Below are positions 2,030-37,886 of a stretch of DNA of 64,000 nt, piece after piece. A program made the position numbers and the translations under genes. The notes under the pieces are model-generated. The model saw only the letters and a program-made list of their open reading frames with translations, did not search any database and had not been told where the DNA came from. Position 1 is the stretch's first letter; each line of letters opens with the position of its first letter. Origin of the DNA: an uncultured Candidatus Saccharibacteria bacterium (lineage in GTDB: Bacteria; Patescibacteriota; Minisyncoccia; Phycocordibacterales; PALSA-1337); NCBI GenBank assembly GCA_964412585.1, contig CAYPPJ010000003.1:12027-76026 (forward strand), read 5' to 3'.

Positions 2030-3544
2030 ATGAAAAAAATCGTCTTACTTATTCTTATAGGCATTATTCTCGCTCCTCAAGCTCTGGGCGCGGCTACTTC
2101 AAACTTTAATCTACGAATAACTGTGTGTAACGGGGGAGATTGTGGTGATGATACACCACCTTCAGTTCCGACAAACCTTGTAGTGACTGCGGTCACTACC
2201 TCCCAAGTCAATCTTTCGTGGGATGCATCGATCGATCCTGGATCGCCCGCGAGTGGTGTGCTGGGATATTCAATATACCGTAATGGGGGAGGGTCGCCAG
2301 TAGCTACTACATCAGGGACTTCATATTCTGACACGGGACTTAGTTCAGGAACTCTATATTCATACTCAGTCCTTGCGTATGACGTTGTCTTGAATGAGAG
2401 TGCACAAAGCTCGACTGTATCAACAACTACACTTTCCATACCATCAAATGAGCCCGTAGCATCAAATGGTTTGCCGGCGGGCTCTCTTGCCGCAGGGACA
2501 ACACAGACGACGATGTCGTTGGATACTGATATTGCGGCGACCTGTAAATATGGCACAACAGCGAATACGGCGTATTCGAGTCTCCCAAATACATTTTCTA
2601 CGACGGGCGGAATGTCACATTCAACAATAGTTACCGGACTTGCCAATGGTATAACCAAGACACTGTATGTGCGCTGTCAAAGCTCAACGAACGTGCCGAT
2701 GACTAGTGACTACATTATCTCGTTTTCCATCGCTTCACCCTCATCGAGTAGTGGCGGTGGTGGAGGGGGTGGAGGTGGCGGGGCAGGGGCACCGCCGGCC
2801 TTACCGCTTAATCCAGTGAATGTTATTGTGCGCGGTATCGCGTATCCAGGCAGTCGGGTGACTCTTCTTAAAGATGGTCAAACAGCGGCGAGCACTCAAT
2901 CTGGCCCTGACGCTCGATTTGAAATCCAGCTCTCGGGAGTAGGTGAGGGAACATTCACGTTCAGTGTGTGGGCGACGGATAAGAATGGCGTTCGTTCGAC
3001 GCTTTATCCATTTACCGTCACCCTGACTCCAGGGGCGACGACGGTCATCAGTGGCGTGTTCATACCACCGACCTTGAGTCTCGATTACGAAACAGTCAAA
3101 CGGGGCGAGCCACTTCGGGTTATTGGTCAATCGGCGCCAGAAGCGAAGGTTTCGGTTATTTTTCATTCGGATACGGAGATAGTTGAAGATGTGTCAGCTG
3201 ACGCTCAAGGATTGTGGACGTATGTACTTGATACGTTGCGATTGGACTATGGCGATCATACTACTCAAGCTCGATCTATAAAAAACAAGGATATAAGTAC
3301 GCTCTCAAAGACGATTTCGTTCAAGGTGGGTACGCAGAATATTGCTGCAAAAAAGCAGGCTACAACTCAGATAAAATCTGATCTCAATGGTGATGATCGT
3401 GTCGATTTGGCGGATTTTAGTATTATGCTGTTTTGGTACAAGCGTGAACTAACTGACAAATCACCCGTGGGGGTCGATTTAAACAATGATGGAAAAGTTG
3501 ATCTTGTCGATTTTAGTATCTTTGCCTATAACTGGACAGGATAA
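2030..3544 (+). CDS. secreted FN3/Ig-like domain protein with a C-terminal type-I dockerin module
   Basis: It has a signal peptide and an FN3-like segment (PPSVPTNLVVTAVTTSQVNLSWDAS...YSYSVLAYD). A poly-Gly linker (SSSGGGGGGGGGGAGAPPALP) precedes an Ig-like region. The C-terminus carries duplicated Ca-binding dockerin repeats, DLNGDDRVDLADFSIMLFWYK and DLNNDGKVDLVDFSIFAYNW (nt ~3380..3541). Confidence 0.7.
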   Translation: MKKIVLLILIGIILAPQALGAATSNFNLRITVCNGGDCGDDTPPSVPTNLVVTAVTTSQVNLSWDASIDPGSPASGVLGYSIYRNGGGSPVATTSGTSYSDTGLSSGTLYSYSVLAYDVVLNESAQSSTVSTTTLSIPSNEPVASNGLPAGSLAAGTTQTTMSLDTDIAATCKYGTTANTAYSSLPNTFSTTGGMSHSTIVTGLANGITKTLYVRCQSSTNVPMTSDYIISFSIASPSSSSGGGGGGGGGGAGAPPALPLNPVNVIVRGIAYPGSRVTLLKDGQTAASTQSGPDARFEIQLSGVGEGTFTFSVWATDKNGVRSTLYPFTVTLTPGATTVISGVFIPPTLSLDYETVKRGEPLRVIGQSAPEAKVSVIFHSDTEIVEDVSADAQGLWTYVLDTLRLDYGDHTTQARSIKNKDISTLSKTISFKVGTQNIAAKKQATTQIKSDLNGDDRVDLADFSIMLFWYKRELTDKSPVGVDLNNDGKVDLVDFSIFAYNWTG

Positions 3545-3545
3545 T

Positions 3546-4475
3546 ATGGCTATTCATACACTGACAACGAGGTTGGTTCTCTGTGCTCTAGGCATTGTTG
3601 CTTTTATGACAGTGTTGAGTCTTGCATCGCCCGCTGCACGTGCGGCAACTATTGCATTTGATCCGCAGGAGACGACCGTCGGTACGGCTCAGCCATTCCT
3701 TATTGGTATAACTATTGATTCGGATGTGGCGGTGAATACAATTCGCGCGGTAATCGACGTACCTGAATCCATGGACATCGTTGAGGCATCTGACGGAAAC
3801 TCAGTCATCAATTTTTGGGTAGAACGCCCGCATATCACCGATGCGCATCAGCTCGTATTTGCCGGCATTATTCCGGGCGGATTTGTGGGAAACAAAGGAA
3901 AACTGGTGACACTTACCGTGCGCGCAAAAAAACGCGGCTCGTTTGATTTTATTTTCAACCCTTCTTCAGGTATTTATGCAAATGACGGATTGGCGACTCG
4001 CCAAAGTGTTGTCTCTCGTCCATTGCGGTTGGATGTTGTTGCGGGTAAAGATAACATTATGAATATCATTCCAGATACGGTTGCTCCTGAGACGTTTACT
4101 CCGGTTCTCGTCGAAATCCCTGACGGTGGAAAGGGGAGCTGGGCAGTCTCATTTGTTGCGCAAGATAAGATTTCCGGTATTTCTTCGTACGAAGTTGCAG
4201 AATCATTTACCAAATTTGATCAGTCTAGTACACGTTCGTTGTCTCATTTGAAATGGCGTACTGCATCGAGCCCCTATATTCTTTCTGACCAGGAGTTATC
4301 CTCTCATATTTATGTTCGAGCGACTGATGGTAAAGGAAATACTCGAGTCGCATACGTGGCACCGCACTCAGTACCCTCATGGTATCGAACGCCTGGAGGT
4401 TATATACTTATAGCATTATGCCTATTTCTTGCTCTGTATGGTCTTAGCCGACGCCTACATTGGAAACGTGAATAA
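3546..4475 (+). CDS. membrane-anchored cohesin-domain protein (small type)
   Basis: The ORF track starts at 3486 and overlaps the upstream gene. An in-frame ATG at 3546 gives a clean signal peptide (MAIHTLTTRLVLCALGIVAFMTVLSLASPAARA). The cohesin-like beta-sandwich region (ATIAFDPQETTVG...IRAVIDVPESMDIVEASDGNSVINFWVERP...LVTLTVRAKKRGSFDFIF...ANDGLA) follows, then a C-terminal TM (GGYILIALCLFLALYGL) and a short basic tail. Confidence 0.6.
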   Translation: MAIHTLTTRLVLCALGIVAFMTVLSLASPAARAATIAFDPQETTVGTAQPFLIGITIDSDVAVNTIRAVIDVPESMDIVEASDGNSVINFWVERPHITDAHQLVFAGIIPGGFVGNKGKLVTLTVRAKKRGSFDFIFNPSSGIYANDGLATRQSVVSRPLRLDVVAGKDNIMNIIPDTVAPETFTPVLVEIPDGGKGSWAVSFVAQDKISGISSYEVAESFTKFDQSSTRSLSHLKWRTASSPYILSDQELSSHIYVRATDGKGNTRVAYVAPHSVPSWYRTPGGYILIALCLFLALYGLSRRLHWKRE

Positions 4476-5901
4476 GTTCAAACAGACGTTCAGTGTCGTC
4501 TGTCGCGGGATAGTGCTATCAGTTGTGGTCCTTGCATTGTTGTGGGGAGTTCGCGCCCCAGCGCACGCCGCTACAGTCTCTGCAGTTTCAGCCGGAGGAA
4601 CTTCTTCGTTTGCTGTTGGTCAGCTATTCTCGGTGACAGTTGCAGTCTCATCGTCTGGAGCAGAACCATTGAATGCTGTCTCGGGGTCTTTATCGTACCC
4701 GACAGACTTGCTCCAGATTGTTTCTGTCGACAAAACAAACAGCATTATCAATTTTTGGATCAGTGAACCGGCTTTTTCGAATCCTACTGGTCAAGCTACT
4801 TTTGAAGGGGGAGTATACAATCCTGGGTTTAGTGGGTCCCAAGGAAAAGTCGTCACCTATTTATTCAAAGCAAAAGCGGCTGGTGTCGCCGATCTGACTT
4901 TTGCCAGAGCTTCGATATTGGCAAATGACGGCCAAGGTACAAATATTCTTGAACGAACCATCCCGCTTCGTACGACCATTGGTACGGCAGCGCCGGAAAC
5001 TGTGCCTGAATCGACGATGCCGCCTGCAGGTATTCCGATCAGGTCAACAACGCATCCTGACCAGAATGCCTGGTATACGAATGGCAAGGTTATTGTGGCT
5101 TGGGATCTGCCGACCGGTGCAACTTCAGTACGTACAGGGGTTGATCACAATCGTCAATCGGTTCCAGTAACAGTAGCAGACCATCTTATTTCAGAGACAA
5201 CACTTACACTCGAAGATGGGACCTGGTATTTTCACCTTCAGACCAAGGATGCAACCGGGTGGGGTACAGTATCAAGTTTTAAAATAAATATCGATTCATC
5301 AGCAGTCAATCCGCCGACATTCGATAAGTTCCCATCAATATTGACGGAAGGCGATGTTCTCCTTGTATCCGGTTCGGCCCCGAAGAACGCCGTTGTCCGG
5401 ATGTTCCTCAAAAATAGTGACGGTGACATACTCAATCAATCTACCAAAGCTGGTGAAGACGGAAGGTTCCAGGCCGTCTGGAGTACGCAACTCGATAACG
5501 ACAGTTATACATTAAATGCAGAAGCGGTAAATAGCCGTGGCCTCAAGAGTTCACGCAGTTCTGACATCGTTATTACTGTTCGTCCGACTGCGCTCGAACG
5601 CGTAGCCAAGCCAGTCATCAGTTATGCAACGATAGTTGCGCTTGTGGCGGGTGTTATCGTTCTCTGTGTGCTGTGGGTCTGGTATCTGATCCAGCGCGCT
5701 CGACATTTCCGCGGAAAAGTCCGTGCTGATATCAAGCGCACCAATCAACTTGTCCATGTTCAATTCAAGAAGCTGCTTGACCAAGCTCGCAGCAAGCGCG
5801 AGCTCACTGCTGAAGAAGAGCGCATGATGGCGATCGTTCGAGAAGGCATCCAGGAAGTAGAGGAAGAAGTGGAAGAGGAAGTGAGAGATATTGGACAGTA
5901 A
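4429..5901 (+). CDS. membrane-anchored cohesin-domain protein (large type: cohesin + conserved ~95-aa module + TM + acidic cytoplasmic tail)
   Basis: The start is uncertain; an in-frame GTG at 4468 would remove the overlap with the upstream gene. Signal peptide: IVLSVVVLALLWGVRAPAHAA. Cohesin-like region: AVSGSLSYPTDLLQIVSVDKTNSIINFWISEP...VVTYLFKAKAAGVADLTF...ANDGQGTNIL. A second module, STTHPDQNAWY...DGTWYFHLQTKDATGWG, is shared with two paralogs. The TM is IVALVAGVIVLCVLWVWYLI, followed by a coiled/acidic tail (EEVEEEVEEEV). Confidence 0.65.
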   Translation: MLCMVLADAYIGNVNKFKQTFSVVCRGIVLSVVVLALLWGVRAPAHAATVSAVSAGGTSSFAVGQLFSVTVAVSSSGAEPLNAVSGSLSYPTDLLQIVSVDKTNSIINFWISEPAFSNPTGQATFEGGVYNPGFSGSQGKVVTYLFKAKAAGVADLTFARASILANDGQGTNILERTIPLRTTIGTAAPETVPESTMPPAGIPIRSTTHPDQNAWYTNGKVIVAWDLPTGATSVRTGVDHNRQSVPVTVADHLISETTLTLEDGTWYFHLQTKDATGWGTVSSFKINIDSSAVNPPTFDKFPSILTEGDVLLVSGSAPKNAVVRMFLKNSDGDILNQSTKAGEDGRFQAVWSTQLDNDSYTLNAEAVNSRGLKSSRSSDIVITVRPTALERVAKPVISYATIVALVAGVIVLCVLWVWYLIQRARHFRGKVRADIKRTNQLVHVQFKKLLDQARSKRELTAEEERMMAIVREGIQEVEEEVEEEVRDIGQ

Positions 5902-5989
5902 TACTTGCTTGTTGAGTGCTATTTCTTCAACACAGATATCAGATGTATTTCAAGTAGACAAAGCACGCCCGCTTCACTAGAATGAGCGT

Positions 5990-7828: not shown

Positions 7829-7843
7829 AGGCATGTTGTTCGT

Positions 7844-8446: not shown

Positions 8447-8447
8447 T

Positions 8448-18928: not shown

Positions 18929-18974
18929 TACATCAGGCCATTCTATCCCCAGATTTACGTAAAAATCACATTTT

Positions 18975-19015
18975 TTTTCGTAAAAAATGGGCTGTTTTTT
19001 GGTACAATATTGAGT
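18975..19015 (+). promoter_or_regulatory. candidate sigma70-type promoter for the giant adhesin gene (extended -10 TGgTACAAT)
   Basis: tggtacaat lies at 19000..19008, 11 nt before the ATG at 19020, which would make the transcript nearly leaderless. An AT-rich tract lies upstream. The call rests on the sequence pattern only. Confidence 0.35.
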
Positions 19016-19019
19016 ACAC

Positions 19020-28000: not shown

Positions 28001-31000
28001 ACTTATTGGTATTCATCGAGTAACTCTTGCTCCATCAGGAAGCGGTGTTATCAATTCGTACGCAACTGGTGTCGTAAGTGCGCAAGGAGGAATCGGTGCT
28101 TTCGGAAACACGGGAGGCAACGGTGGAACTGGGGGAACGATCGGTGGTGCAGGCGGTGCGGGCGGAGCGTCAGGTATTGGCGGTGAAGCTGATGCTGGCG
28201 GACTTGTTGGACTGACCAGCGCCGGTACAGGGGCTATTCACTATTTGAATAACTACTCTACTACAGGGACTACCACCGCAACTGGTGGTGCATCAGGAAA
28301 TGGTGGTAGTGCTGGAAGCTCAATGTCAGGTGGTACGGGTGCAGGTGGTTCAACAGGTGCTAGTGGCGCAAGTGCTGCTGGCGGTGCCGCATTTGCGGGC
28401 GGCTTGATTGCTCAGACGAGTGCGACAGCAAGTAGTAACTTGCAGATTACCACAAACTATTCAACCAAAAACGTAGTTGCTATTGGTGGTGCGAGTGGTA
28501 ATGGAGCGGACGGTGTTATTGGTGGCGCGGGAGGAACATCTGCGATCGGTGGAGTGGGAGGCGCTGGCGGTGTCTCTGGTGCTGGTGGTGCCGCATATGC
28601 GGGCGGACTTATTGGAACAAATGGATCATCAGCAGGTGCTGGTGGTGGTATTATCGAAAATGTCTCATACGCAACGGGAGATGTCACTTCAACAAGTGGT
28701 AATGTTGGGACTGCGGGAAATGCGGGTGCCGGCGGTGCAAGTAATAGTGGTACCGCAACAACGGGTGCAAGTGGTGGAACGGCAGGTACGACTGGTGCAG
28801 GCGGCGCTGCATATGCCGGCGGACTTGTGGCGATCAACGGCGCGACAGGCGTGATTCTCAATTCGTATGCAGGAGGAAATGTGACATCGCTTGCGCGAAA
28901 TGGCGGTATGGGCGGTACCGGTGGTGCGGGTGGAGATGCATCTTTGAGTACGGGAACCGGAGGATCAGGAGTTATTGGTGGTGCAGCAGGTGCAGGTGGT
29001 GATAGTTATGCTGGTGGACTTATTGGGTACAACTTGAGTGCCTTGAACACGATCACGACAAGTTATTCGACGAGTCCGACAGTGACAGGTACGAGTGGAA
29101 ATGGCGGACAGGGTGGTACCGGTGGTAATGGTGGTGCCCCTGGTATTGCCGCTGCTGGCGGAGCTGCGGGAGCAGGTGCTGCGGCAGGCGGGGGAGGTAC
29201 ACTCTATGTTGGTGGACTTATCGGAAGAAATGATGGAACTGTCCAGGCATATTCATACTCAACAGCGAATGTGACTGGTATAGCGGGAACAGGAGGCACA
29301 GGTGGTGTGGGAGGTAATGGGGCAGATGGCGCAGTTGGAACTTCTGGAGCTGGTGGTAACGGTGGCGTAGGTGGTGCGGCAACTGCAGGTGGTGCAGGTG
29401 GTATCGCGTACGGCGGTGCATTTGTAGGAAGAAATGAAACTACGCGCGTTATCAAGGATTCGTATGCTCTTGGCACACTCACTCTTTCTGGTGGCGCTGG
29501 AGGTGTTGGTGGTGTAGGTGGAAACGGTGGCAATGGTGGAAATGGTGCTTCAGCGGGAACGGGAGGAACGGGTGGTAATGCTGGAGCAAGTGGTGCGGGT
29601 ACGGTTGGTGGTGTTAAATATGGCGGAGGATTTGCTGGGTACAACCTCGGTACTATTACCAGCGTATATTCTGTCGGAACAGTTTCGGTAACAGGTGCAG
29701 CTGGTGGAGCAGCTGGTAATGGCGGAAATGCGGGTAACGGCGGTAATGGTGGTGCGTCAGGTGCGGGTGGAACAGGGGGCAACCAAGGTGCAACTTCCAA
29801 TGCGGGTAACGGCGGAGTTTTGCACGCGGGAGGACTTATCGGGTACAACTTTACTGCTGGTGTTATTTCAAACTCATGGACGGCAGGAAGCGTTACCACA
29901 TTTGGTGGTGTTGGTGGTGCGGCAGGAGTGCGTGGAACTTCAGGAACAGGTGGAAATGGGGGGACTCTTGCGGGAGGCAACGGTGGAACCAGTGTTGCGG
30001 GAAGTGCCGGTGGTGCTGGTGGTGCAAGCATTGCTGGCGGACTTATCGGCTCTAATATAAACACAGGATCATTCAATAATAGTTACGCGTCGACAACAGT
30101 CACAATGACTGGAGGAGATGGTGCGATGGGTGGAACAGGTGGTGCTGGAGGAAATGGAGGAGCAGGCGGATCGGGAGGTTCGGGAGACGGTGGAACAGGA
30201 CGAGTGGGTACTATTGGTGGTGCGGGTGGTACCGGTGGTGCGGTGACTGGTGGTGGTCTCGTCGGTGATAACACGGGCGCAATTACGAATGCGTATGCGC
30301 TCGGCAACATCACTGCAACAGCCGGATCGCCGGCCTCTGGCGGTACCGGAGGTAATGGAGGCAACGGTGGAACAGCTGGTGGGGGAAGTGCTGGTACAAA
30401 TGGAAACGGAGCAAACGGTGGTGCTGGCGGTGCAGGCGCGAGTGCGTATGTAGGAGGATTGCTCGGCAGTCATGCGACGTCACTCGTTACCAATGCATAT
30501 TCGGTCGGGACGCCGAGTGCAACAAAAACATCTGGTGTTGCTGGCGGTGCGGGAGGAGTCAAAGGTACTGGCGGTACCGGAGGAAGCAACGGAAGCACTG
30601 GTTCAACTGGTGCTTCATCAGCGCTTCAGTATGCAGGAGGTATTGTGGGTAACCCAGTGAGTGGTACGTGGGCCTCAAGCTATTGGAATACGACAACCTC
30701 AGGAAAAACCGACGGTGCAGGAAACGCTACAACACCAACCAATACATCCGGAAAAACAACGACGCAGATGAAACAGCAGGCAACATTTACCAGCTGGGAT
30801 TTCAGCATCCTCCCAATTTGGAAAATTGCCGAAGCTTCTACATATCCATATTTTGACTACCAGGTAGCGCCAGATGCTCCAACTACAGTTGTTGCCGTTG
30901 GTGGCAATGGTCAGGCAACAATCACATTTACTCCTCCCGCAAATACAGGTGGGGGACAGATTTTATACTACACCGTCACTTCAGATGTCGGTGGCTTTAC

Positions 31001-34000
31001 CGCAACTGGAGGATCATCACCAATCACTATTACCGGTCTCACCAACGGCCAGGCATATACATTCACCGTGACTGCCACGAATGCAAATGGAACGAGTATT
31101 TCTTCGGCTACAAGTAATGCGGTAACTCCAGCAACCGTTCCCGATGCTCCAACTGGCGTCTCTGCCGTACGCGGAAATGGGGAAGCTACAATTACCTTCA
31201 GTGCGCCAGGAAATAATGGAGGCTCATCGATTTTATACTATACCGTCACTTCAAACATCGGAGGATTCGTCGCATATGGTGGTTCCTCACCTATCACTAT
31301 TACAGGTCTTATTAACGGTCAGGCGTACACATTTACCGTAACCGCGACAAATAGTGCGGGAACAAGTTCGCCTTCTTCAACGTCAAATTCAGTAACGCCT
31401 GCAACAGTTCCAAATGCACCAACAGGCATCAGTGCTACGAGTGGAAATGGCCAGGCTACAGTCACCTTTACTCCACCTGCTGATAATGGCGGCGATACCA
31501 TTTCATATTACACAGTTACTTCTAACATTGGAGGATTTGTCGCTTATGGTGGGGCGTCACCGATCGTCGTTACTGGACTTTCAAATGGCGTCCCGTATAC
31601 GTTCACCGTCACAGCAACGAATAGTGTTGGAACAAGTACGCTATCGGCAACAAGTAATTCAGTAGTTCCTGCTACAGTTCCAGATGCTCCGACTATCGGT
31701 ACTGCAACAGCAGGAAATGGACAGGTTACTATTACATTCAGTGCGCCAGGTGATAACGGCGGCTCGGCGATTACGTATTACACCGTCACTTCAAACGTCG
31801 GCGGATTTACTACTTATGGCGCTTCGTCTCCTCTCATTGTGACGGGGCTTACGAATGGTCAGGCATACACATTTACCGTGACTGCGACAAATGCGGTCGG
31901 AACAAGTACAGCTTCGAGCGCGACGAGTGCGGTAACGCCTGCCACAGTTCCTGATGCTCCGACTGGCGTCTCTGCTGTTCGTGGAAATGGTCAAGCAACA
32001 ATTACATTCAGCGCTCCTTCATCAAATGGTGGATCAGCAATCACGTACTACACCGTTACTTCAAACGTTGGCGGACTCACGACATACGGCGCATCGTCTC
32101 CACTTGTTGTGACGGGACTTACGAATGGCCAGGCATATACATTCACCGTGACAGCAACGAATGCGTTTGGAACAAGTACTGTATCAGTTGCAAGCAATTC
32201 TATTTCTCCTGCAACTGTTCCTGATGCTCCAGTTATTGGTACCGCAACCGCAGGAAATGGGGAAGCAACAATTACATTCACTCCAGGATCAAGTGACGGA
32301 TATTCATCGGTCTTGTACTACACCGTTTCTTCAAATACTGGCGGATTTGTGGTCTATGGAGGAGCTTCTCCAATCGTGGTGACCGGTCTCTCAAATGGTA
32401 CAACGTATAACTTTACGGTTACCGCGACAAATGCAGTTGGCACAAGTACTGCTTCGAGCGCAACCAATTCGGTCACGCCAGTTACTGTCCCTGGGGCGCC
32501 AACATCGGTGAGTGCGGTTGGAGGTAATGGTCAGGCAACCATCACATTCACGCCTCCAGTTTCAAATGGTGGATCAGCAATTACTACATACACTGTGTCA
32601 TCAAACGTTGGTGGATTTACCGCAACAGGAGGGGCTTCGCCGATTGTTGTCACCGGACTCACAAATGGTACGACATATACATTCACCGTGACTGCAAGTA
32701 ATGCATTTGGGACCAGTACGGCTTCTGCAACGACAAACTCAGTTGTTCCTGCGACAGTTCCGAGCGCTCCAACCATTGGCACGGCAACAGCAGGAAACGG
32801 CCAGGCAACGATCACGTTCACTCCACCAGCAGACAATGGCGGCTCTTCGATCATTCGCTACACAGTTTCGTCTGATGTAGGCGGCTTCACCGCAACGGGA
32901 GGTTCGTCACCAATCGTTATTACCGGCCTTTCAAATGGAACGACCTACACATTTACCGTGACTGCGACTAATGCGGTTGGAACCAGTACTTCATCGGGAA
33001 CAACCAATTCAGTAACGCCAGCAACTATTCCTGGTGCTCCAACTATTGGAACCGCAACCGCAGGGAATGGTCAGGCAACTGTAACATTTAGTGCACCGGT
33101 TTCAGACGGGGGTTCAGCAATTCAATATTATACAGTTTCATCAAACACAGGAGGGTTCGTGGTGTATAGTGGTTCGTCACCAGTCATCATGACAGGCCTC
33201 TCAAATGGTACCTCGTATAACTTTACCGTGACCGCTACAAACGCAATTGGTACAAGTACCGCTTCTGCAACAACAAACTCAGTAACCCCGGCTACAGTTC
33301 CAGACGCGCCAACTATCGGCACAGCAACTCGTGGTAACGGGGAAGCAACGATTACATTTACTCCTCCAGTTTCTAACGGTGGTTCTGCAATCACGACATA
33401 TACAGTCACTTCAAATACGGGTATCACCGCGACGGGCGGTTCATCACCGATCGTAGTGACGGGCCTCACTAACGGCGTTGCCTACACATTTACCGTTACT
33501 GCAACAAATGCGATCGGTACGAGCACTGCATCAGCTTCAACAAATTCCGTTACGCCAGCAGAAGTTCCTGGAGCTCCGACTATTGGTACAGCAACTCGTG
33601 GCAATGGCCAGGCAACTATTACCTTCAGCGCACCTGGTGTTAGTGGAGGTTCTGCAATCTTGTATTACACCGTGACATCGAATACTGGTCTTAGTGCAAC
33701 TGGGGGATCTTCACCAATCACGATTACTGGTCTAACAAATGGTGTTGCGTATACCTTTACGGTGACCGCTACAAACGCAATTGGTACAAGTACCGCGTCT
33801 GCTACAACAAACTCAGTAACCCCAGCTACAGTTCCAGATGCACCAACTATCAGTACGGCAACTCGCGGTAACGGGGAAGCAACGATTACCTTCAACGCAC
33901 CAGGAGATAATGGTGGTTCGCCTATTTCATATTACACGGTCACCTCAAACGTCGGCGGATTTGTCGCATATGGCGGTTCTTCACCGATCACGATCACTGG

Positions 34001-35807
34001 CCTCACTAATGGTCAGGCATACACATTCACTGTGACTGCTACAAATGCGGTTGGCACAAGTACAGCTTCGAGCGCAACCAATTCGGTCACGCCAGCAACT
34101 ATTCCTGGTGCTCCAACTATTGGAACCGCAACCGCAGGGAATGGTCAGGCAACAATCACCTTTAGTGCACCAGTTTCAAATGGTGGTTCAGCGATCACTA
34201 TATACACTGTCACTTCAAATACGGGTATCACCGCGACAGGCGGTTCATCACCAATCACTGTTACTGGCCTCACTAATGGTCAGGCATACACATTCACCGT
34301 GACTGCATCGAACGCGCTCGGCACAAGTACCGCATCAGTAGCAAGTAATTCAGTTACTCCCGCAACCGTTCCTGACGCGCCAACAAATGTCGCGGCTTCT
34401 ATCGGCGATACATCTGCCGGCGTTACCTTCTCAGTCCCAGCAAATAACGGTTCGGCGATTACGTACTACACGGTGACATCTAATATTGGCGGTCACTCAA
34501 CAACAACTACGTCAACATCCGCCGTTGTTACCGGACTTACTAACGGCGTCACCTATACATTCACCGTGACAGCAACGAACGCGATTGGTACAAGCACTTC
34601 ATCGGGCACAAGTAATGGTATAACCCCTGCAACTGTTCCGAGTGCTCCGCTTAACCTCGCGGCGACGGTTCAAGATAGCAGTATCGATCTCTCATGGACT
34701 GCGCCAGCCTCGAACGGAGGATCAGCTCTTACGGATTATGTTATTGAGTATAAACTCTCAAGCGGTGGTAGCTGGTCAGTATTCTCGGATGGCATCAGTA
34801 CTACGCCTGCCGCTACGGTAACGAGTTTGTCGAACGATAATTCATATGACTTTAGGATATATGCAAAAAATGTTATTGGAACGGGCGTCGCTTCTTCGAT
34901 AGTCAGTGCGACACCCGGAGCTCCTGCGCAGGTCTTGATTCAGAGCTTCTCAAATTTGCTGACGCCGACGATCTCAACAAACGTACGTATTACTAACGAA
35001 GGTTCTATTGCATATGAATATCAGTACACCTGGTGTGTGACGGATTCGGCACTCAACCAGTGTGGTGGTGGCGATGACGTGTTCAGTTCAACTGCGGCAA
35101 AGCTCATTCAGCCGGGAGAGAATTTTGACACCGCACTCAACTCGACGGTTTCGGTTGCAGGCAATTACTACTTCCACATTAATGTACAGTTCGGTTCAGA
35201 TTCATCGAGCGCAAACCAATCTTTCACTGCGACTACAGCCGGGGCAACCGTTCCTGATGCACCTACTATTGGAACCGCAACCGCAGGGAATGGTCAGGCA
35301 ACAATCACTTTTAGTGCCCCGGGGAGTAATGGTGGTTCCGCAATCTTGTATTACACCGTAAGCTCGAACGTTGGAGGATTTATCTCATATACAGCTGGTT
35401 CGCCGGTGACTATAACGGGCCTCACCAATGGTACGGCGTACTCCTTCTCAGTGACTGCAACAAATGCGATCGGAACGAGTTCGGCATCTGCCTCAAGCAA
35501 CACGGTCACGCCAGCCACACCGGCAGCACCAAGTGGCGGCGGAGGTGGTGGAGGAGGCGGGGGTGGCGCTGGAGCTTCTGCGCCTGCAGCACCTGCTACA
35601 TCAGGTGTCATTGTCGGCGCGGATCTAAATGGTGATGGTAAAGTAAATTCAGTTGATTTTTCTATCATGCTCGCATTTTGGAAGACTGCCGCTCCATTCA
35701 AAAATCCTGGTGTAGATATAAACCATGATGGACATGTCAATTCAATTGATTTCTCGATTTTGCTTTATCAGTGGGGTAAAAAACCTATCTTTATTAAACA
35801 ACCATAA
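19020..35807 (+). CDS. giant (5,595 aa) secreted adhesin-like protein: signal peptide, Pro/Thr stalk, globular region, ~50 GLUG-like Gly-rich repeats, ~16 FN3 repeats, poly-Gly linker and C-terminal type-I dockerin
   Basis: A single uninterrupted ORF. The signal peptide is MNLRGSAQKLSVLLIVMIMFCGFVSTALA. The recurring unit is [AV]YAGGL[IV]G.N.G.I.NSY.TG.V followed by a GGxGG spacer. The FN3 units are ...PATVPDAPT..GNGQATITF..P..NGGS.I..YTVTSN.GG......SSPI.ITGLTNG..YTFTVTATNA.GTS.... The C-terminus carries the dockerin repeats DLNGDGKVNSVDFSIMLAFWK and DINHDGHVNSIDFSILLYQW. Confidence 0.85.
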   Translation: MNLRGSAQKLSVLLIVMIMFCGFVSTALADEADAPAPAADTSAPAVTAPAPEAPVTPAPEATPTPEVVPPTEPVVQPEPQPQPETPTADNQPPVTPVSDTVASTTAPVVVVLTGDVATSTNPVVGESVATSTDSLVVEPMATSTEVVASSTVPTSSASSTITEHASGGGSISTTTTPTVATTTGTTATSTNYYNFTYSTVWTITEGILETSTSTTATSTQATSTSVSATTTPTTVLASSTPETVVATSSLPTITEQLTDTGKVVVVSSTPEQELISPMINVPVRTEIPEIFRVGQESQIKITWSNNDNQQMEFVTYDDDGDGFIDHVSWVVPHLSTQTFEIILISNALRLDANKNTLEDIFAGVGTLDQNYISILDGQYVRVTFERMLSNTNDITLYARPTDANVPATIEVYTKDGVLVGTFATIDHDGRYRIVLSGLASSTDVFDLKVIGNVDIDYVTDPPANAYWVGGSGNWSDAANHWATVSGGAPGAGNLPDATTNVFFDATSGGAAVTATIDSSISIGSLTINGFTGTIVQSANLTITNSGGQSGNYLQSSAATFTATDPGTNTFSVTGSFLLNAGTFRRYTGIGNSSDPFIVFDVYGLQGMKTGLSSSYKLNNDINASVTSGWNSGAGFAPVGDSTTNFTGIFDGNNYTISNLFISTTTLSYVGLFGYSTNIIQDVTLTGVSIAATSTSGTAGSTGANGSDGSATSNGTAGGAGTAGSTLYLGGIVGYNTGTITNVGVNGTIIGTGGAGGAGGNGGNGGNITSGSNAGGAGGNAVSNAAATGGIAYVGGVVGYSQQGSITTATSSATVTGVGGAGGASGNAGNGGNGSVAGVGTGAGGAGGAAALPGAGNIAYVGGLIGWIQTGTVSSSFATGNVTARGGAGGNAGTSGTGGNAGVGGGGSALGGIGGAGAAGGAGGVAYAGGIAGNNSGTIRNGSYATSDVLASGGIPGNGSAGSASGASAAGSVIAAASSATATGGAGGAGAIAYAGGLVGQNNTPGFITGIVSPVYATGAVTAIGSTGKNGTAGGAGGSAGLTTSGTGGVGGAAGNGGAGGAAYAGGLIGISMGSLLTTNSSVGLVTVLGGAGGIGGTGGAGGAKGSAGTSGAGGASGSGGSAAVVASYAGGLIGSNVGTIRNSYSTNAVNGTAGAGGAGGVGVAAQTGLAGLGGGTGGAAGILYIGGVAGNSTLSITDSYHTTGAINGTAGAGGAAGAGGAGGAWTGGTQGAAGTAIIGGVVYAGGVVGNNTGTSLLNVYSTVDVTGTSGAGGAGANGGNGYTNTTGVAGVAGSVGLTGGTAYVGGVVGYMTNGEISNAYSTGTITAQGGVGGVGGNGGNGGAGTSNTGGAGGAGATGGAGGPAFGGGVAGIIILGTVSGSYNTGNIIVDAGDGGTAGNGGSGGVGGTNFAGGTGTVAGNGGAGGVAAAGGIAGQSAGVIQATSYSTGNVTALAGAAQVGGVGGNGGASVGTFVGAGAVGGAGGAGGAGATAYAAGIVGNNTNTIQNSYASGVILATASAGANGGAAGLGGSNATGGSSSTGAAGANGGAGGAGAVAYAGGIAGLSTAIIANTYIESGSATVIGSAGGIGATGGAGGTAGTGALGAIGGTGGAGGAGAVGYAGGLVAFNTGGTINNSHAFILASSTSGTSGVGGTGGAGGYGSTGGTGGIGVVGAASYAGGAVGLNTGVINGTYATGNAMATGGAGSANGGGGNGGNSSTSAGGAGGAAGAATTNLGGVAYAGGLVGLNGTNGSIQGASHASGNATSTGGAGGNGLTGGSGGTSTGAFTGGLGIAGGPGLSGGVAAAGGLVGFNSGAVASDSYAGGNAYANGGLGGSGGNGGNGGASGGGVVGVAGVGGGVGLTGGAAYAGGVIGNDSVLGTTISIPNTTGTVASLGGTGGNGGNGGNGGNGGSVSGGNGGAGGAAGAGGNGGLAASGGILGLNVGVIHDVTYTITSITASGGVAGTGGTGGNAGASGNVAAGAGANGGQGGAGGVGGAAYIGGLAGDNSGVIVDSVVTGSLTAAGRNGGDGGIGGTGGNGSLGTGGHAGGIGGAGGNGSSGGAVYIGGLVGQGNGNIQKSRAIGGTITVTSGGNGGTGGAGTAGGSGGSGSGKNGVGGGGGTGGVVGPVYAGGAIGYSSLVSVLIDTVSSSNNVTVTSGNGGTGGAGVAGVNGAAGSAGGGGGGGGAAGGLAVYAGGLEGYNSGAAQNISNSFATGNVTVYGGNGGTGQVGGAGAAAISAVVGGAGAAGGIGGAGGFAVAGGLVGFTNTLVAIASSSATGNVTVVAGNGGNAGNGGAGALGGAGQVGGAGGAGGAAGLGGASYAGGLIGLVTSGDIVNSSSTGIVQGTSGNGGNSGNGGSGGAGGSGVTGTIGTAGTLGANGGVNYTGGLVGDNTSAILNSYHVGGAVSATSGNGGNGGAGGDGGASGSITNGTAVAGGAGAAGGVGGAISVGGLVGRNGVTAVSATITGSYATTSVTAVGGNGGNGGAGGLGGNGSSGTNHIGGAGGAGGAGGAAATGVGTAIQIGGLVGQNVLGTITASYAQTGIASSTGGNGGTAALGGTGGIGTGTAVYGAGGAGAAGGAGGAIYAGGLVGYTTGVVEAGSYSKTSLVLTGGSGANGSAGISASANTGAAGSVPGGGGASGVIYAGGLAGYSTSDVISSYASYDAGSGRGNITVNGGTPGNGGNAGNGGSGLAAGGVGGAGGLGTAGTGGNASGAFVGGLVGFSSGIVTSSYADTLTISGIEQPGGTGGNGGSGGAGVGANNGGTGSVGGAGGAGGVRAYGGLVGDFLSTLGTVQGFSYSSVNISVTGGNGGNGGMGGTGGTSGASQSSGTAAIAGVGGAGGAGGATYGGGLIGRISGTTQVMRVSNSNATGNISVTSGNGGNGGQGGVGGNGSTGSGTHAGATGALGGVAGVGGEAGAGGLIGMSSLTSGSIDFIALNATGNASALGGNGGIQGTSGAGGASASGAAGAAGGGAVLTPPAGGAAYAGGLIGIHRVTLAPSGSGVINSYATGVVSAQGGIGAFGNTGGNGGTGGTIGGAGGAGGASGIGGEADAGGLVGLTSAGTGAIHYLNNYSTTGTTTATGGASGNGGSAGSSMSGGTGAGGSTGASGASAAGGAAFAGGLIAQTSATASSNLQITTNYSTKNVVAIGGASGNGADGVIGGAGGTSAIGGVGGAGGVSGAGGAAYAGGLIGTNGSSAGAGGGIIENVSYATGDVTSTSGNVGTAGNAGAGGASNSGTATTGASGGTAGTTGAGGAAYAGGLVAINGATGVILNSYAGGNVTSLARNGGMGGTGGAGGDASLSTGTGGSGVIGGAAGAGGDSYAGGLIGYNLSALNTITTSYSTSPTVTGTSGNGGQGGTGGNGGAPGIAAAGGAAGAGAAAGGGGTLYVGGLIGRNDGTVQAYSYSTANVTGIAGTGGTGGVGGNGADGAVGTSGAGGNGGVGGAATAGGAGGIAYGGAFVGRNETTRVIKDSYALGTLTLSGGAGGVGGVGGNGGNGGNGASAGTGGTGGNAGASGAGTVGGVKYGGGFAGYNLGTITSVYSVGTVSVTGAAGGAAGNGGNAGNGGNGGASGAGGTGGNQGATSNAGNGGVLHAGGLIGYNFTAGVISNSWTAGSVTTFGGVGGAAGVRGTSGTGGNGGTLAGGNGGTSVAGSAGGAGGASIAGGLIGSNINTGSFNNSYASTTVTMTGGDGAMGGTGGAGGNGGAGGSGGSGDGGTGRVGTIGGAGGTGGAVTGGGLVGDNTGAITNAYALGNITATAGSPASGGTGGNGGNGGTAGGGSAGTNGNGANGGAGGAGASAYVGGLLGSHATSLVTNAYSVGTPSATKTSGVAGGAGGVKGTGGTGGSNGSTGSTGASSALQYAGGIVGNPVSGTWASSYWNTTTSGKTDGAGNATTPTNTSGKTTTQMKQQATFTSWDFSILPIWKIAEASTYPYFDYQVAPDAPTTVVAVGGNGQATITFTPPANTGGGQILYYTVTSDVGGFTATGGSSPITITGLTNGQAYTFTVTATNANGTSISSATSNAVTPATVPDAPTGVSAVRGNGEATITFSAPGNNGGSSILYYTVTSNIGGFVAYGGSSPITITGLINGQAYTFTVTATNSAGTSSPSSTSNSVTPATVPNAPTGISATSGNGQATVTFTPPADNGGDTISYYTVTSNIGGFVAYGGASPIVVTGLSNGVPYTFTVTATNSVGTSTLSATSNSVVPATVPDAPTIGTATAGNGQVTITFSAPGDNGGSAITYYTVTSNVGGFTTYGASSPLIVTGLTNGQAYTFTVTATNAVGTSTASSATSAVTPATVPDAPTGVSAVRGNGQATITFSAPSSNGGSAITYYTVTSNVGGLTTYGASSPLVVTGLTNGQAYTFTVTATNAFGTSTVSVASNSISPATVPDAPVIGTATAGNGEATITFTPGSSDGYSSVLYYTVSSNTGGFVVYGGASPIVVTGLSNGTTYNFTVTATNAVGTSTASSATNSVTPVTVPGAPTSVSAVGGNGQATITFTPPVSNGGSAITTYTVSSNVGGFTATGGASPIVVTGLTNGTTYTFTVTASNAFGTSTASATTNSVVPATVPSAPTIGTATAGNGQATITFTPPADNGGSSIIRYTVSSDVGGFTATGGSSPIVITGLSNGTTYTFTVTATNAVGTSTSSGTTNSVTPATIPGAPTIGTATAGNGQATVTFSAPVSDGGSAIQYYTVSSNTGGFVVYSGSSPVIMTGLSNGTSYNFTVTATNAIGTSTASATTNSVTPATVPDAPTIGTATRGNGEATITFTPPVSNGGSAITTYTVTSNTGITATGGSSPIVVTGLTNGVAYTFTVTATNAIGTSTASASTNSVTPAEVPGAPTIGTATRGNGQATITFSAPGVSGGSAILYYTVTSNTGLSATGGSSPITITGLTNGVAYTFTVTATNAIGTSTASATTNSVTPATVPDAPTISTATRGNGEATITFNAPGDNGGSPISYYTVTSNVGGFVAYGGSSPITITGLTNGQAYTFTVTATNAVGTSTASSATNSVTPATIPGAPTIGTATAGNGQATITFSAPVSNGGSAITIYTVTSNTGITATGGSSPITVTGLTNGQAYTFTVTASNALGTSTASVASNSVTPATVPDAPTNVAASIGDTSAGVTFSVPANNGSAITYYTVTSNIGGHSTTTTSTSAVVTGLTNGVTYTFTVTATNAIGTSTSSGTSNGITPATVPSAPLNLAATVQDSSIDLSWTAPASNGGSALTDYVIEYKLSSGGSWSVFSDGISTTPAATVTSLSNDNSYDFRIYAKNVIGTGVASSIVSATPGAPAQVLIQSFSNLLTPTISTNVRITNEGSIAYEYQYTWCVTDSALNQCGGGDDVFSSTAAKLIQPGENFDTALNSTVSVAGNYYFHINVQFGSDSSSANQSFTATTAGATVPDAPTIGTATAGNGQATITFSAPGSNGGSAILYYTVSSNVGGFISYTAGSPVTITGLTNGTAYSFSVTATNAIGTSSASASSNTVTPATPAAPSGGGGGGGGGGGAGASAPAAPATSGVIVGADLNGDGKVNSVDFSIMLAFWKTAAPFKNPGVDINHDGHVNSIDFSILLYQWGKKPIFIKQP
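21010..30700 (+). repeat. array of ~50 degenerate GLUG-like repeats (~55-65 aa each) inside the giant CDS; Gly-codon-rich (GGT/GGA/GGC/GCG)
   Basis: Units were counted by eye from the translation (e.g. IAYVGGLIGWIQTGTVSSSFATGNV, ASYAGGLIGSNVGTIRNSYSTNAV). The boundaries are approximate. Confidence 0.6.
30864..35520 (+). repeat. tandem array of ~16 FN3-type repeats (~92 aa / ~276 nt period) with long near-identical nucleotide stretches
   Basis: Blocks such as caggcatacacattcaccgtgactgc and ttcctgatgctccgact recur. One divergent FN3 (YDFRIYAKNVIGTG) and a ~200-aa non-repeat insert (aa ~5290-5400) interrupt the array. Confidence 0.65.
35619..35804 (+). other. type-I dockerin module of the giant protein
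   Basis: Two 22-residue Ca-binding loop/helix repeats are present, D-L-N-G-D-G-K-V-N-x-x-D-F and D-I-N-H-D-G-H-V-N-x-x-D-F, each followed by a hydrophobic helix. Confidence 0.7.
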
Positions 35808-35809
35808 AT

Positions 35810-36424
35810 ATGTTTAAAATATCTTTACAACATTGGGTAATTGGCGTGCTAACGCTTGGGGTGACATGCATGCCACTTAGTATGCATGCAGCAGAATTGA
35901 AGTTTAACGTAGTGCCCGTGAGTGGAGTCGCTGACTCGGTAACACGCGTTGATGTCCGCATTGACCCGCAGTCAAAGAGGTTGAACGTCGTCGAGGGTGT
36001 TATCCAGTTTGGTGGCCCCGCCTCTGACAACCTCACCGTTCAGGTTGAAAATGGTCAGTCAATGTTACCCATGTGGCCGACACCTCCGCAGTATGATCCG
36101 AGGACAAAATCAATCCGGTTTACCGGGGGAGTGCCCAATGGTTTTGAATCAGAAGGGTTGTTGTTCAGGTTGCTGATTTCCTCGACCGTGACAGGTGATT
36201 TTACGATGTCATATACCGAGGGAAGTGCATATATAAATGACGGAAAGGGAACAAAGGAGCCAATGAAGGCGACGCCACTCACCATTCAGGCTGGTGTATC
36301 TGGTTCGACGGACAATTCTTCTAGGTCGAGCACCTACACCTATGGTATTATTATCGTATTGATTATTGTTGTGTGTGCAGGAATTTTTATCTATGGCCTT
36401 AGACATAAAGAGAAGCAATTATAG
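35810..36424 (+). CDS. membrane-anchored cohesin-domain protein (small type)
   Basis: The signal peptide is VIGVLTLGVTCMPLSMHAA. The cohesin-like region is LKFNVVPVSG...RVDVRIDPQSKRLNVVEGVIQFGG...LLFRLLISSTVTGDFTMSYTEGSAYINDGKG. The C-terminal TM is YGIIIVLIIVVCAGIFIYGL. The gene starts 3 nt after the giant gene's stop. Confidence 0.55.
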   Translation: MFKISLQHWVIGVLTLGVTCMPLSMHAAELKFNVVPVSGVADSVTRVDVRIDPQSKRLNVVEGVIQFGGPASDNLTVQVENGQSMLPMWPTPPQYDPRTKSIRFTGGVPNGFESEGLLFRLLISSTVTGDFTMSYTEGSAYINDGKGTKEPMKATPLTIQAGVSGSTDNSSRSSTYTYGIIIVLIIVVCAGIFIYGLRHKEKQL

Positions 36425-37886
36425 AACATACTACGCAATCATTCTTGCGGTTGGTATGTTTTTTTTCGGCACAGCGCACATCCATGCCGCCACCTTGCAG
36501 GTCAGTCCAAGTGCAACGACGGTATCGCCTGGAGGTATTTTGACTCTGTCGGTTTCGTTGAATTCTGAAGGCGTTGCCATCAACAATGCCGAAGCAAAAA
36601 TTATATTTCCCGCAGATATGCTGGAGGTTGTTTCAATAAACAAGAGTAGTTCATTGTTCACGTTGTGGGTGGAAGAACCATCGTATTCAAATTCGACTGG
36701 CATCATTGCCTTTAATGGTGGCATCCCCACGCCAGGATTCAACGGTCCATATGGCACAGCATTATCTATTGTGGTGAAAGCAAAAAAGGCGGGGCAGGCA
36801 GATATTCTTATCTCGGATGCTGCTGTTCGGGCCAATGATGGTCTGGGTACCAATGTGCTCACGGGCATAAAAGGTGCCACACTCCGTGTTGTGGCAAAGG
36901 CGGAACAACCTGCGGATGAAATTCAAACACCTGCCCCCTCATCTTCGGTTGCTTCTCTTGTCATAACTTCACCAACTCATCCTTCTCAGGAATCGTGGTA
37001 TAAGGATGCGAGTCCGCTCTTTAGGTGGAAAATTCCTGCTGGTGTAGATGCGGTCCAGACAAGTATAGACGCGACGACCTCAGGGTTACCACGGGTTACG
37101 TATAGTCCAGCTATTTCAGAAAAGTCCGTTACTGACTTGAAAGATGGTATTTGGTATTTCAAAGTTCGTGCCCGCAAGGATGGGCAGTGGAGTCCGGTCA
37201 GTACCTATATTGCCCGCATAGATAGTGTGGCTCCAAAAAACAATAGCGTAGCGTTCAATTACGACGATCGAGCAAAAGTGCTGCATATTAATGCTGATAT
37301 CATAGATGAAACATCAGGTGTTGATTATTACGAACTGTATCTCAACGATACTCTTGCAAAGAAGGTTCCTGCAGCAGAATTTGTAAAGGGATCTTATGAT
37401 CTCCCAATATCAACTTCTGGGGATGTTGCCGTAAAGTTAGTTGCAGTTGATCGTGCGGGTAATAATGTAGACGCTCTTGGAACATTCCATGCGACTCCGA
37501 TAATAAATGATTCACCGCAGTCGGTTCAGCCGGTCGCATCGACGGACAAACAGATGCTTGTCACTATCGGCTCGTTTGCTATGCCGGTCTTGTATTTCGT
37601 CGTTCTTCTCATCTCAATCGTACTATTGCTCGTTCTTGGTGCATTCAAGCTGGGAAATCATTACAGCTCCTTCTATCACAAAGTAAGGACGAGAGCTGCA
37701 TTGGGTAAAGCGGATAATATAAAAGTACTCATTTCTCTGAAGAAACGCCTTGAAAGGCATCTAGAATTGTTGCAGCGCACTCGACATGAACGCGTGCTTT
37801 CAAAGGAAGAAAAAGATATCAAACAAGCAATAGAGGGTGATTTGGACGAAGTCGATCAGGCTATAGAAGATCAAAAAGGGGAGTAA
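36393..37886 (+). CDS. membrane-anchored cohesin-domain protein (large type: cohesin + conserved module + TM + charged tail)
   Basis: The start is uncertain (ORF track 36366; the Met at 36393 gives MALDIKRSNYRTYYAIILAVGMFFFGTAHIHA). The cohesin-like region is NNAEAKIIFPADMLEVVSINKSSSLFTLWVEEP...ALSIVVKAKKAGQADILI...ANDGLGTNVL. The second module is SPTHPSQESWY...DGIWYFKVRARKDGQW. The TM is FAMPVLYFVVLLISIVLLLVL, followed by a K/E-rich tail. Confidence 0.65.
   Translation: MALDIKRSNYRTYYAIILAVGMFFFGTAHIHAATLQVSPSATTVSPGGILTLSVSLNSEGVAINNAEAKIIFPADMLEVVSINKSSSLFTLWVEEPSYSNSTGIIAFNGGIPTPGFNGPYGTALSIVVKAKKAGQADILISDAAVRANDGLGTNVLTGIKGATLRVVAKAEQPADEIQTPAPSSSVASLVITSPTHPSQESWYKDASPLFRWKIPAGVDAVQTSIDATTSGLPRVTYSPAISEKSVTDLKDGIWYFKVRARKDGQWSPVSTYIARIDSVAPKNNSVAFNYDDRAKVLHINADIIDETSGVDYYELYLNDTLAKKVPAAEFVKGSYDLPISTSGDVAVKLVAVDRAGNNVDALGTFHATPIINDSPQSVQPVASTDKQMLVTIGSFAMPVLYFVVLLISIVLLLVLGAFKLGNHYSSFYHKVRTRAALGKADNIKVLISLKKRLERHLELLQRTRHERVLSKEEKDIKQAIEGDLDEVDQAIEDQKGE

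Follow-up and report, generated by a model that had tools for sequence, protein, structure and literature searches.

A conserved dockerin-cohesin-cohesin gene cassette as a putative membrane tether for surface fibres in the candidate phyla radiation

Cellulosomes are fixed to the cell by anchoring scaffoldins, which carry S-layer homology (SLH) domains in Clostridium thermocellum (SdbA, OlpB and Orf2p) and a sortase signal in Ruminococcus flavefaciens (ScaE); solved structures include PDB 4dh2, 3ul4 and 2zf9. Non-cellulosomal cohesin-dockerin pairs occur in the glycoside-hydrolase toxin complexes of Clostridium perfringens (2w1n, 2vo8 and 2o4e) and in Archaeoglobus fulgidus (2xdh), where the modules sit on soluble secreted enzymes or proteins; we know of no membrane-anchored cohesin, plug-socket-socket operon or giant repeat passenger in either. 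Giant repeat fibres are formed by RTX adhesins such as LapA and SiiE, which diderm bacteria retain through an outer-membrane plug of the type I secretion system (T1SS). To our knowledge, the ways in which bacteria belonging to the candidate phyla radiation (CPR) build surface structures, retain them and attach to hosts are largely unknown, because almost none of these bacteria has been cultured. Here we analyse a 64-kb stretch of DNA (the window) on contig CAYPPJ010000003.1 of an uncultured Candidatus Saccharibacteria bacterium, which encodes a three-gene cassette consisting of a dockerin protein, a small cohesin membrane anchor and a large cohesin membrane anchor, in this order. We propose, with a probability of about 70%, that this cassette is a Ca-dependent plug-and-socket of non-cellulosomal type, by which surface fibres are tethered to the membrane, and is present in two paralogous copies, B-C-D and E-F-G, plus a solo anchor, H. 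The initial annotation of the window had suggested a single cohesin-dockerin surface system; a surface system is indeed supported here, not as one unit but as two paralogous triads and one solo anchor.

The modules are classical cohesins and dockerins and do not constitute a new principle; what is new is the triad, conserved CPR-wide and present twice in the window. In the literature that we searched, a scope that did not include the 2009 survey of non-cellulosomal cohesins by Peer et al., we found no description of cohesins anchored in CPR by a transmembrane (TM) helix, and likewise none of a fixed plug-socket-socket operon, of non-enzymatic hypervariable cargo or of a restriction to CPR. Compared with the cellulosomal scaffoldins, the CPR anchors use a C-terminal TM helix instead of SLH domains or an LPXTG signal, and they carry one cohesin each, with no scaffoldin; their predicted cargo is a non-enzymatic fibre rather than enzymes, and plug and sockets are encoded together as a fixed three-gene cassette. 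A similar order of domains is known from eukaryotes: TMEM132 combines a cohesin, three BIG immunoglobulin-like (Ig-like) domains, a TM helix and a cytoplasmic tail, has no known dockerin partner and has been proposed to be an adhesion molecule linked to the cell interior (PMC6030884). The large anchors D and G share with it the order of cohesin, Ig-like domains, single TM helix and tail, which is a likeness of architecture only. The anaerobic methanotrophic (ANME) archaea, which are non-cellulolytic and partner-dependent, encode numerous proteins with dockerins and cohesins, for which attachment of functional proteins to the envelope and cell-cell contact have been proposed as roles (PMC9012536). 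Their dockerins reside on S-layer-domain proteins, ABC substrate-binding proteins and multi-cohesin scaffoldin-like proteins (PMC9012536); unlike the CPR triad, the ANME systems are described without a pair of TM-anchored single-cohesin proteins encoded downstream of its plug.

Dockerin and cohesin proteins in the window

Both triads lie on the + strand within positions 2030-37886, and the solo anchor lies outside this interval. The proteins and their parts are as follows.

B, 2030..3544 (+): dockerin passenger of triad 1, 504 aa, secreted; signal peptide, FN3, poly-Gly stretch, Big_6 Ig-like domains and C-terminal dockerin.
Dockerin module of B, 3380..3541 (+): residues 451-504, found by regular-expression and six-frame scans.
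C, 3546..4475 (+): small cohesin membrane anchor of triad 1, 309 aa; cohesin ~3642-4040, TM helix ~4389-4445, short basic tail; assigned from the cohesin hidden Markov model (HMM), hydropathy, alignments A1 and A2, and synteny.
D, 4438..5901 (+): large cohesin membrane anchor of triad 1, 487 aa counted from the ATG at 4438; cohesin ~4567-4980, then an Ig-like stalk; TM helix ~5632-5688; charged helical cytoplasmic tail 5689-5898.
E, 19020..35807 (+): giant dockerin passenger of triad 2, 5,595 aa; in order, signal peptide 19020-19106, Pro/Thr-rich linker, N-terminal globular region ~19830-20999, Gly-rich repeats ~21000-30809, ~16 FN3 domains ~30867-35504, poly-Gly linker and dockerin.
Dockerin module of E, 35622..35804 (+): residues 5535-5595; Pfam Dockerin_1 above cut-off.
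F, 35810..36424 (+): small cohesin membrane anchor of triad 2, 204 aa; cohesin ~35888-36292, then a Ser-rich linker; TM helix ~36344-36400, tail RHKEKQL; assigned from the cohesin HMM, hydropathy and orthologues at the same position in >100 loci.
G, 36393..37886 (+): large cohesin membrane anchor of triad 2, 497 aa; cohesin ~36486-36893, two Ig/FN3-like stalk domains ~36960-37493, TM helix ~37587-37643, conserved helical cytoplasmic tail 37644-37883.
H, 48921..50273 (-): solo cohesin membrane anchor, 450 aa; cohesin ~49731-50138, TM helix ~49068-49124.

The genes of each triad are tightly packed. B and C are separated by a 1-nt gap and C overlaps D by 38 nt, while E and F are separated by a 2-nt gap and F overlaps G by 32 nt.

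When all six frames of the window were scanned for the 12-residue loop D-x-[NDST]-x-[DN]-x-x-[VIL]-[NDST]-x-x-D, exactly four dockerin-type loops were found, forming two pairs at the C-termini of B and E. In B the Ca-binding loops read DLNGDDRVDLAD and DLNNDGKVDLVD, and their positions 10-11 are Leu-Ala and Leu-Val; those of E are DLNGDGKVNSVD and DINHDGHVNSID, with Ser-Val and Ser-Ile. The modules have the architecture of a dockerin, two tandem segments of ~22 residues with a 12-residue Ca-binding loop (D or N at positions 1, 3 and 5, D at position 12) followed by a helix. The helix after each loop has the conserved sequence DFSI(M/L)L, which is distinctive of this family, and both halves are near-identical. 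E scores 33.8 bits against Pfam Dockerin_1 (PF00404), above the gathering cut-off of 22.9 bits. We aligned 26 dockerin modules from the window and related loci (alignment A4, B plus 25 others), in which D4, D15, D35, N37, D39 and D46 are invariant. As a profile against the PDB, this alignment ranked 17 solved dockerin chains at the top, with E values from 6e-11 (CelS) to 2e-3 and with modules from C. cellulolyticum, A. cellulolyticum and C. acetobutylicum among them, whereas generic EF-hand proteins appeared only at E>=0.025. Because solved dockerins outrank EF-hand proteins in this search, the modules of B and E are dockerins and not generic EF-hand or thrombospondin-type loops; the initial annotation, which had read both C-termini as dockerins and had allowed that they might score as generic Ca loops only, read them correctly.

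Outside the dockerin, the only domains recognised in B, E and eight passengers from other loci (see below) are of FN3, Big_6 or MG2-like type; the repeats have no annotation. B matches Pfam fn3 and Big_6, and a faint Dockerin_1 match was obtained on its orthologue in locus L087. E matches fn3 in 16 stretches and has giant orthologues of 5,419 aa (L001) and 4,054 aa (L002). Its Gly-rich region (21000-30809) spans ~3,300 aa with 35% Gly and a repeat period of ~67 aa, each repeat following Y-[AV]-G-G-[LIV]-[VI]-G-x-N-x-G-x-I...S-Y-x-T-G-x-V and then runs of GGxGG; local GC reaches 0.50-0.56 and GC skew +0.34 to +0.39. By eye, the repeat resembles the GLUG motif (Y-A-G-G-L-V-G-x-N-x-G-x-I). Neither GLUG (PF07581) nor any other Pfam family matched residues 600-3,899 of E at E<=1, and no match in Pfam, NCBIfam or PDB was found for the Gly-rich region or the N-terminal region. 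E, as predicted here, shares with the RTX adhesins a very long fibre of Ig/FN3-like units, a distal part set off from the rest and an element near the cell that is dedicated to retention, and the Ig repeats of SiiE (2yn3) are among the Foldseek matches; they differ in that E would be retained by a C-terminal dockerin seated in a membrane cohesin, and in the Gly-rich repeat, which is without counterpart in Pfam or the PDB.

The cohesin HMM finds one cohesin domain each in C, D, F, G and H. These N-terminal domains share 21-31% mutual identity and ten invariant columns (alignments A1 and A2). H scores 43.9 bits against Pfam Cohesin (PF00963; gathering cut-off 24.1 bits), and its isolated domain 47.1 bits; D additionally matches Pfam Big_13. 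Profiles built from five or eighteen of the cohesin domains placed solved cohesins first in the PDB, weakly (E 0.02-0.05). Some homologues of G and D have a precomputed PF00963 match, and several NCBI records are named 'cohesin domain-containing protein'. Structural evidence comes from a model of G built on an alignment of 38 sequences, with a mean predicted local distance difference test (pLDDT) score of 81. In the model a signal helix is followed by a beta-sandwich (residues 33-166), two Ig/FN3-like domains (190-276 and 282-367) and a TM helix that starts at 399 and runs into cytoplasmic helices up to 496. The beta-sandwich is flattened and superposable on solved cohesins; Foldseek gave TM-scores of 0.73-0.78 to type-I cohesins, the best match being the cohesin plus FN3 module 2w1n. 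The earlier reading of the beta-sandwich as a cohesin is borne out by this model.

Each of the five proteins has, in Kyte-Doolittle plots, an N-terminal hydrophobic segment with an AxA-type site (HA|AT) and a single C-terminal hydrophobic helix followed by K/R. Hydropathy, the G model and the related loci described below agree with the earlier layout, in which the cohesin is preceded by a signal peptide and followed by a C-terminal TM helix. The small anchors have almost no cytoplasmic tail, and in the large anchors the cohesin is raised on two Ig-like domains. The cytoplasmic tail of D and G is ~80 aa long, charged and helical, with L453, R467, E473, K477, E481 and L484 invariant in 38 sequences; it gave no family match. 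As the initial annotation had stated, other surface signals are absent: no glycoside hydrolase (GH), carbohydrate-binding module (CBM) or SLH domain was found in the ~30 window proteins scanned, a scan that left some small open reading frames (ORFs) outside, and no LPXTG-like signal occurs near any C-terminus in the six-frame translation of the window.

A conserved gene order and a putative covarying contact in relatives

Relatives were searched with an alignment of the G family (A3), and 170 related loci were scanned with the cohesin HMM and a dockerin pattern (two copies of DFSI.L), which takes in dockerins with a degenerate first loop. A dockerin C-terminus lies directly upstream, on the same strand, of 119 of the 126 adjacent cohesin-gene pairs for which upstream sequence is available (94%); conversely, 131 of 132 dockerin-like C-termini are directly upstream of a cohesin gene. 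A TM-like segment follows the cohesin in 307 of 315 cohesin ORFs. The survey of related genomes that had been suggested with the initial annotation thus recovers the order dockerin, cohesin, cohesin almost throughout. Among the triads, 114 are non-identical; their small anchors range from 196 to 362 aa and their large anchors are mostly 480-610 aa, while complete passengers extend from 291 to 5,597 aa (median 813). Eight passengers from other loci combine Dockerin_1 (22.8-36.7 bits, seven of the eight passing the cut-off) with FN3 or MG2-like Ig domains and have no catalytic domain. The first cluster of the window is a more divergent paralogue of the cassette, whose order U-A-B-C-D-pyrG is kept in three other genomes or metagenomes; triad 1 is also syntenic in L085-L088.

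Covariation within the 114 triads suggests a contact between dockerin and cohesin. We calculated the normalised mutual information between dockerin columns and the columns of the neighbouring proteins. The highest values link loop position 10 of the two dockerin repeats with cohesin position 34 of the large anchor, that is N65 of G (0.45 and 0.35); the control, 9,306 pairs with the stalk and tail of the same protein, reached a maximum of 0.26. The residue pairings (dockerin/cohesin) are Ser-Asn in 93 triads, Ala-Gln in five and Leu-Ala in four, the last being the type of B and D. In type-I dockerins a Ser/Thr pair sets specificity, and loop position 10 holds the first of its two residues. When G is aligned with the C. 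cellulolyticum cohesin, N65 falls on the Thr of 'GTCNF', and we take it to be equivalent to Asn37 of C. thermocellum, and E67 of G to Asp39, through the CipA Coh2 sequence ('ANCDF'). In the C. thermocellum cohesin, Asn37, Asp39, Gly123 and Ala125 contact the Ser/Thr motif of the dockerin (PMC5772552). Judged from these positions, the covariation points to the large anchor as the canonical dockerin binder. We also correlated dockerin with cohesin distances in the manner of a mirror tree; the coefficients (Spearman 0.44-0.47, versus 0.30 for the non-binding stalk and 0.60 between the two cohesins) did not clearly exceed their controls, and the analysis was dropped as uninformative.

Small and large anchors are fused in a single ORF in at least eight of 143 cluster representatives (P0234, P0240, P0257, P0283, P0318, P0319, P0332 and P0334; 766-886 aa). 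These have two cohesin domains and an internal TM or signal segment, in the layout cohesin-TM-signal/TM-cohesin-stalk-TM, and P0240 keeps an AxA cleavage site. They are the only two-cohesin proteins found and provide Rosetta-stone evidence that small and large anchors work together. Single cohesin ORFs of 821 and 908 aa in L031 and L074 may be fusions of the same kind.

Four loci (L092, L117, L129 and L131) contain a solo large cohesin-TM gene without a dockerin gene upstream. In L092, L129 and L131 the solo anchor is preceded by a conserved gene of ~200 aa, ending in '...YY[IL]KVSKINGVEAEFRS..F.I...P.G.DC', and in L117 by a more divergent gene of ~200 aa ('...YYLAANKINGTSLGERSYAFTIYETPTG...'); these genes possibly encode a different partner. 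We also considered SEML1_0315, which is essential in Southlakia epibionticum, a Saccharibacterium in culture, and is annotated as a dockerin protein (PMC10633639). The genes next to it encode a hydrolase and a tRNA and not cohesins, so it does not belong to the same cassette.

By their labels, the relatives are mostly of CPR type. G has at least 495 homologues, the best 120 of which all have E<1e-117, and D has 110; their source names include 'Candidatus Parcubacteria', 'Paceibacterota', 'Patescibacteria group', and Uhr-, Falkow- and Vogelbacteria. When one genome per GTDB species was scanned, 230 relatives came up. The 80 retained carry mostly Patescibacteria-type labels (Parcu-, Paceibacteria/Paceibacterota, Nomura-, Falkow-, Wolfe- and Adlerbacteria, 'Patescibacteria group' and many Saccharibacteria metagenome-assembled genomes (MAGs)); seven are labelled only 'bacterium' or 'uncultured bacterium', and two are short contigs labelled Flavobacteriaceae and Gammaproteobacteria, which we take to be mis-binned. 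Nearly all of the 170 related loci likewise have CPR/Patescibacteria or unclassified MAG labels, in agreement with the earlier suggestion of a CPR-like organism; we take the carrier of the window to be an ultra-small CPR bacterium of Parcubacteria type. Against 1.84 billion representatives at 50% identity, a profile of the large anchor gave 2,292 matches at E<=1e-30, a part of which match only by their repeated Ig-like domains; among the best 150, most are full-length (480-600 aa). On this sequence evidence, the cassette is widespread and common in CPR/Patescibacteria, with conserved anchor parts and variable cargo.

Proposed mechanism and alternative readings

We propose the following mechanism. 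The first gene would encode a Sec-exported passenger, highly variable in length and with no catalytic domain detected, and the second and third genes, tightly coupled to the first, would encode bitopic membrane proteins with the cohesin outside and a C-terminal TM helix. After export, the C-terminal dockerin of the passenger, type-I-like and with two Ca2+ loops, would plug non-covalently and in a Ca2+-dependent manner into the cohesin of the large anchor, the contact being formed by the canonical strand-3/strand-8 face of the cohesin and the position-10 residue of each dockerin loop. The small anchor may be a second socket for the internally symmetric dockerin, or a partner subunit. Held in this way by a membrane cohesin, the passenger would be rooted at its C-terminus and thus project from the membrane through the wall as a fibre, with its N-terminal end distal. 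For E, the order from the membrane outward would be a poly-Gly hinge, ~16 FN3 domains, ~3,300 aa of Gly-rich repeats and the N-terminal globular region. This layout is typical of a fibrillar adhesin; the passengers are probably adhesins and may serve in host attachment. The specificity residues differ between the triads (Ser-Val in E and Asn in G versus Leu-Ala in B and Ala in D), so the two triads are probably orthogonal pairs.

If this is correct, the cassette would be a common, conserved and directly testable answer to the question of how uncultured CPR hold their surface fibres. Both kinds of module can be produced in E. coli, and days suffice to measure their binding, its dependence on Ca2+ and its cross-specificity. 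Pairs confirmed in this way would serve as a pull-down handle for native fibres, a means of labelling CPR cells and a probe of what the distal ends of the fibres bind. A bolder version, which we regard as possible and rather doubtful, is that the triad is the main envelope-anchoring device of Parcubacteria-type CPR, that small and large anchors form a heteromeric 1:1 two-cohesin socket gripping the symmetric dockerin of interchangeable, fast-evolving host-attachment fibres, and that the tail of the large anchor couples occupancy or load to the cell interior. The 1:1 socket is suggested because natural fusions of the two anchors recur. Such a device would go beyond a passive tether and be a prokaryotic counterpart of integrin- or TMEM132-type adhesion receptors.

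Several observations weigh against the tether that we propose. At the level of Pfam, the HMM check suggested with the initial annotation gave a mixed picture: H and E pass, B reaches 20.9 bits with Dockerin_1, just below the cut-off, D reaches 20.9 bits with Cohesin, also below, and C, F and G have no Cohesin match, C and F matching no Pfam family at all. H, the fifth cohesin-type protein of the window, and solo anchors elsewhere adjoin no dockerin gene, so for some cohesin anchors there is no obvious partner. Cleavage of the signal peptide and the orientation of the TM helix were read from hydropathy and the positive-inside rule only, and the adhesin role from domain content alone. The covariation reflects few independent changes, perhaps in 2-4 clades, and is therefore supportive and not decisive; the mapping to Asn37 of C. 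thermocellum is in part tentative. At the position equivalent to N65 the small cohesins have Val (F) or Thr (C) and not Asn, so dockerin binding by the small anchors is less supported than that by the large ones. Finally, a co-fold of the F cohesin fused to the E linker and dockerin, run as a single sequence with no alignment, had a mean pLDDT of 35.7 and was uninformative rather than negative.

Set against these points, the gene order, the tight or overlapping junctions and the covariation at position 10 give strong indirect support to the prediction that the cohesins receive the dockerin proteins at the membrane. A dedicated assembly factor would likewise be expected to show a conserved gene order and coupling, and this leads to the first alternative, that the cohesin-like membrane proteins help to export, assemble or chaperone the passenger, or form a generic scaffold across the wall, and that the dockerin is a Ca2+-stabilised module with another ligand, such as peptidoglycan, an S-layer or a host glycan. 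The sub-threshold Pfam scores of C, F and G and the small anchors without Asn at the canonical contact position in alignment A1 would fit it, and the conserved cytoplasmic tail hints at a role beyond passive anchoring. We consider this alternative unlikely, although the best of those discussed here.

A second alternative is an interaction in trans, in which the passenger is held otherwise on its own cell and its dockerin plugs into the cohesins of a neighbour, a sibling CPR cell or, less likely, the host, causing aggregation. Cohesin and dockerin form adhesive links of high mechanical strength (PMC6030884), the dockerin has internal symmetry and two cohesins are encoded for each, and a solo anchor such as H could take dockerins from other cells. 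However, E has a signal peptide that looks cleavable (ALA|DE) and no other anchor was detected on it (no TM helix, LPXTG or SLH); moreover, plug and both sockets are predicted to be co-transcribed in one cell, which makes self-assembly the simplest explanation. A receptor on the host is unlikely, because homologous anchors were found only in CPR-type MAGs. We therefore judge binding in trans to be less probable still than an assembly factor.

A small cellulosome-like complex for polysaccharide degradation, which the presence of the two hallmark cellulosome modules and a weak partial NCBIfam match of B to the exoglucanase CbhB (61 bits against a cut-off of 1,950, covering the FN3/Ig region only) might suggest, is rejected as extremely improbable, in line with the initial annotation: each cohesin protein of the window has a single cohesin, no scaffoldin was found, no GH, carbohydrate esterase, polysaccharide lyase or CBM was detected in B, E, the eight other passengers or the other window proteins scanned, and the passengers have no SLH domain or sortase signal. 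Metagenomes are sometimes credited with cellulolytic potential on the basis of their cohesin and dockerin counts (e.g. PMC7038595). For the proposed tether, such counts in CPR genomes would mean something else.

Gene calls and neighbouring genes

The window sequence is identical to metagenome contigs at JGI (3300045331 and others). For D, orthologues of 483-487 aa favour the ATG at 4438 within the ORF 4429-5901; the JGI gene call P0121 for D is only 397 aa long and loses the signal peptide and part of the cohesin domain. Truncated calls of this kind would hide the cohesin and signal peptide in automated surveys. A terminator-like hairpin lies 3' of G at 37990-38008 (consensus match only). At the other end of triad 2, a 276-aa ORF with a GTG start and no Pfam match (18311-19141, - strand) extends over ~120 nt at the beginning of E; the true start of this ORF probably lies further downstream, leaving a short divergent intergenic region before E.

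Two genes are found directly upstream of B, in an order kept in L085-L088. U (364-1071, + strand, 235 aa) is secreted and rich in Thr/Ser, contains the motif 'GWNVTL' and has 'YSAPLTYTATSN' at its C-terminus; A (1082-2017, + strand, 311 aa) is also secreted and combines a signal peptide with a TM helix at the C-terminus and a KRR tail. Neither had a match in Pfam or NCBIfam. By eye, the pair recalls the loci of Firmicutes that combine a WxL protein with a DUF916/DUF3324 membrane protein. The ~12 kb between the two clusters contain unrelated, mostly housekeeping-type genes (pyrG, HD phosphohydrolase, CYTH, EamA, rhodanese and others), and H is flanked by genes for a 152-aa membrane protein and an ABC transporter. 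Elsewhere, the window encodes IlvD (dihydroxy-acid dehydratase; 38283-40115, - strand), IlvC (ketol-acid reductoisomerase; 44231-45304, + strand) and a type-2 NADH dehydrogenase with NDH2_C (51889-53259, + strand); a CPR-type genome does not usually contain enzymes of respiratory type or of branched-chain amino-acid biosynthesis.

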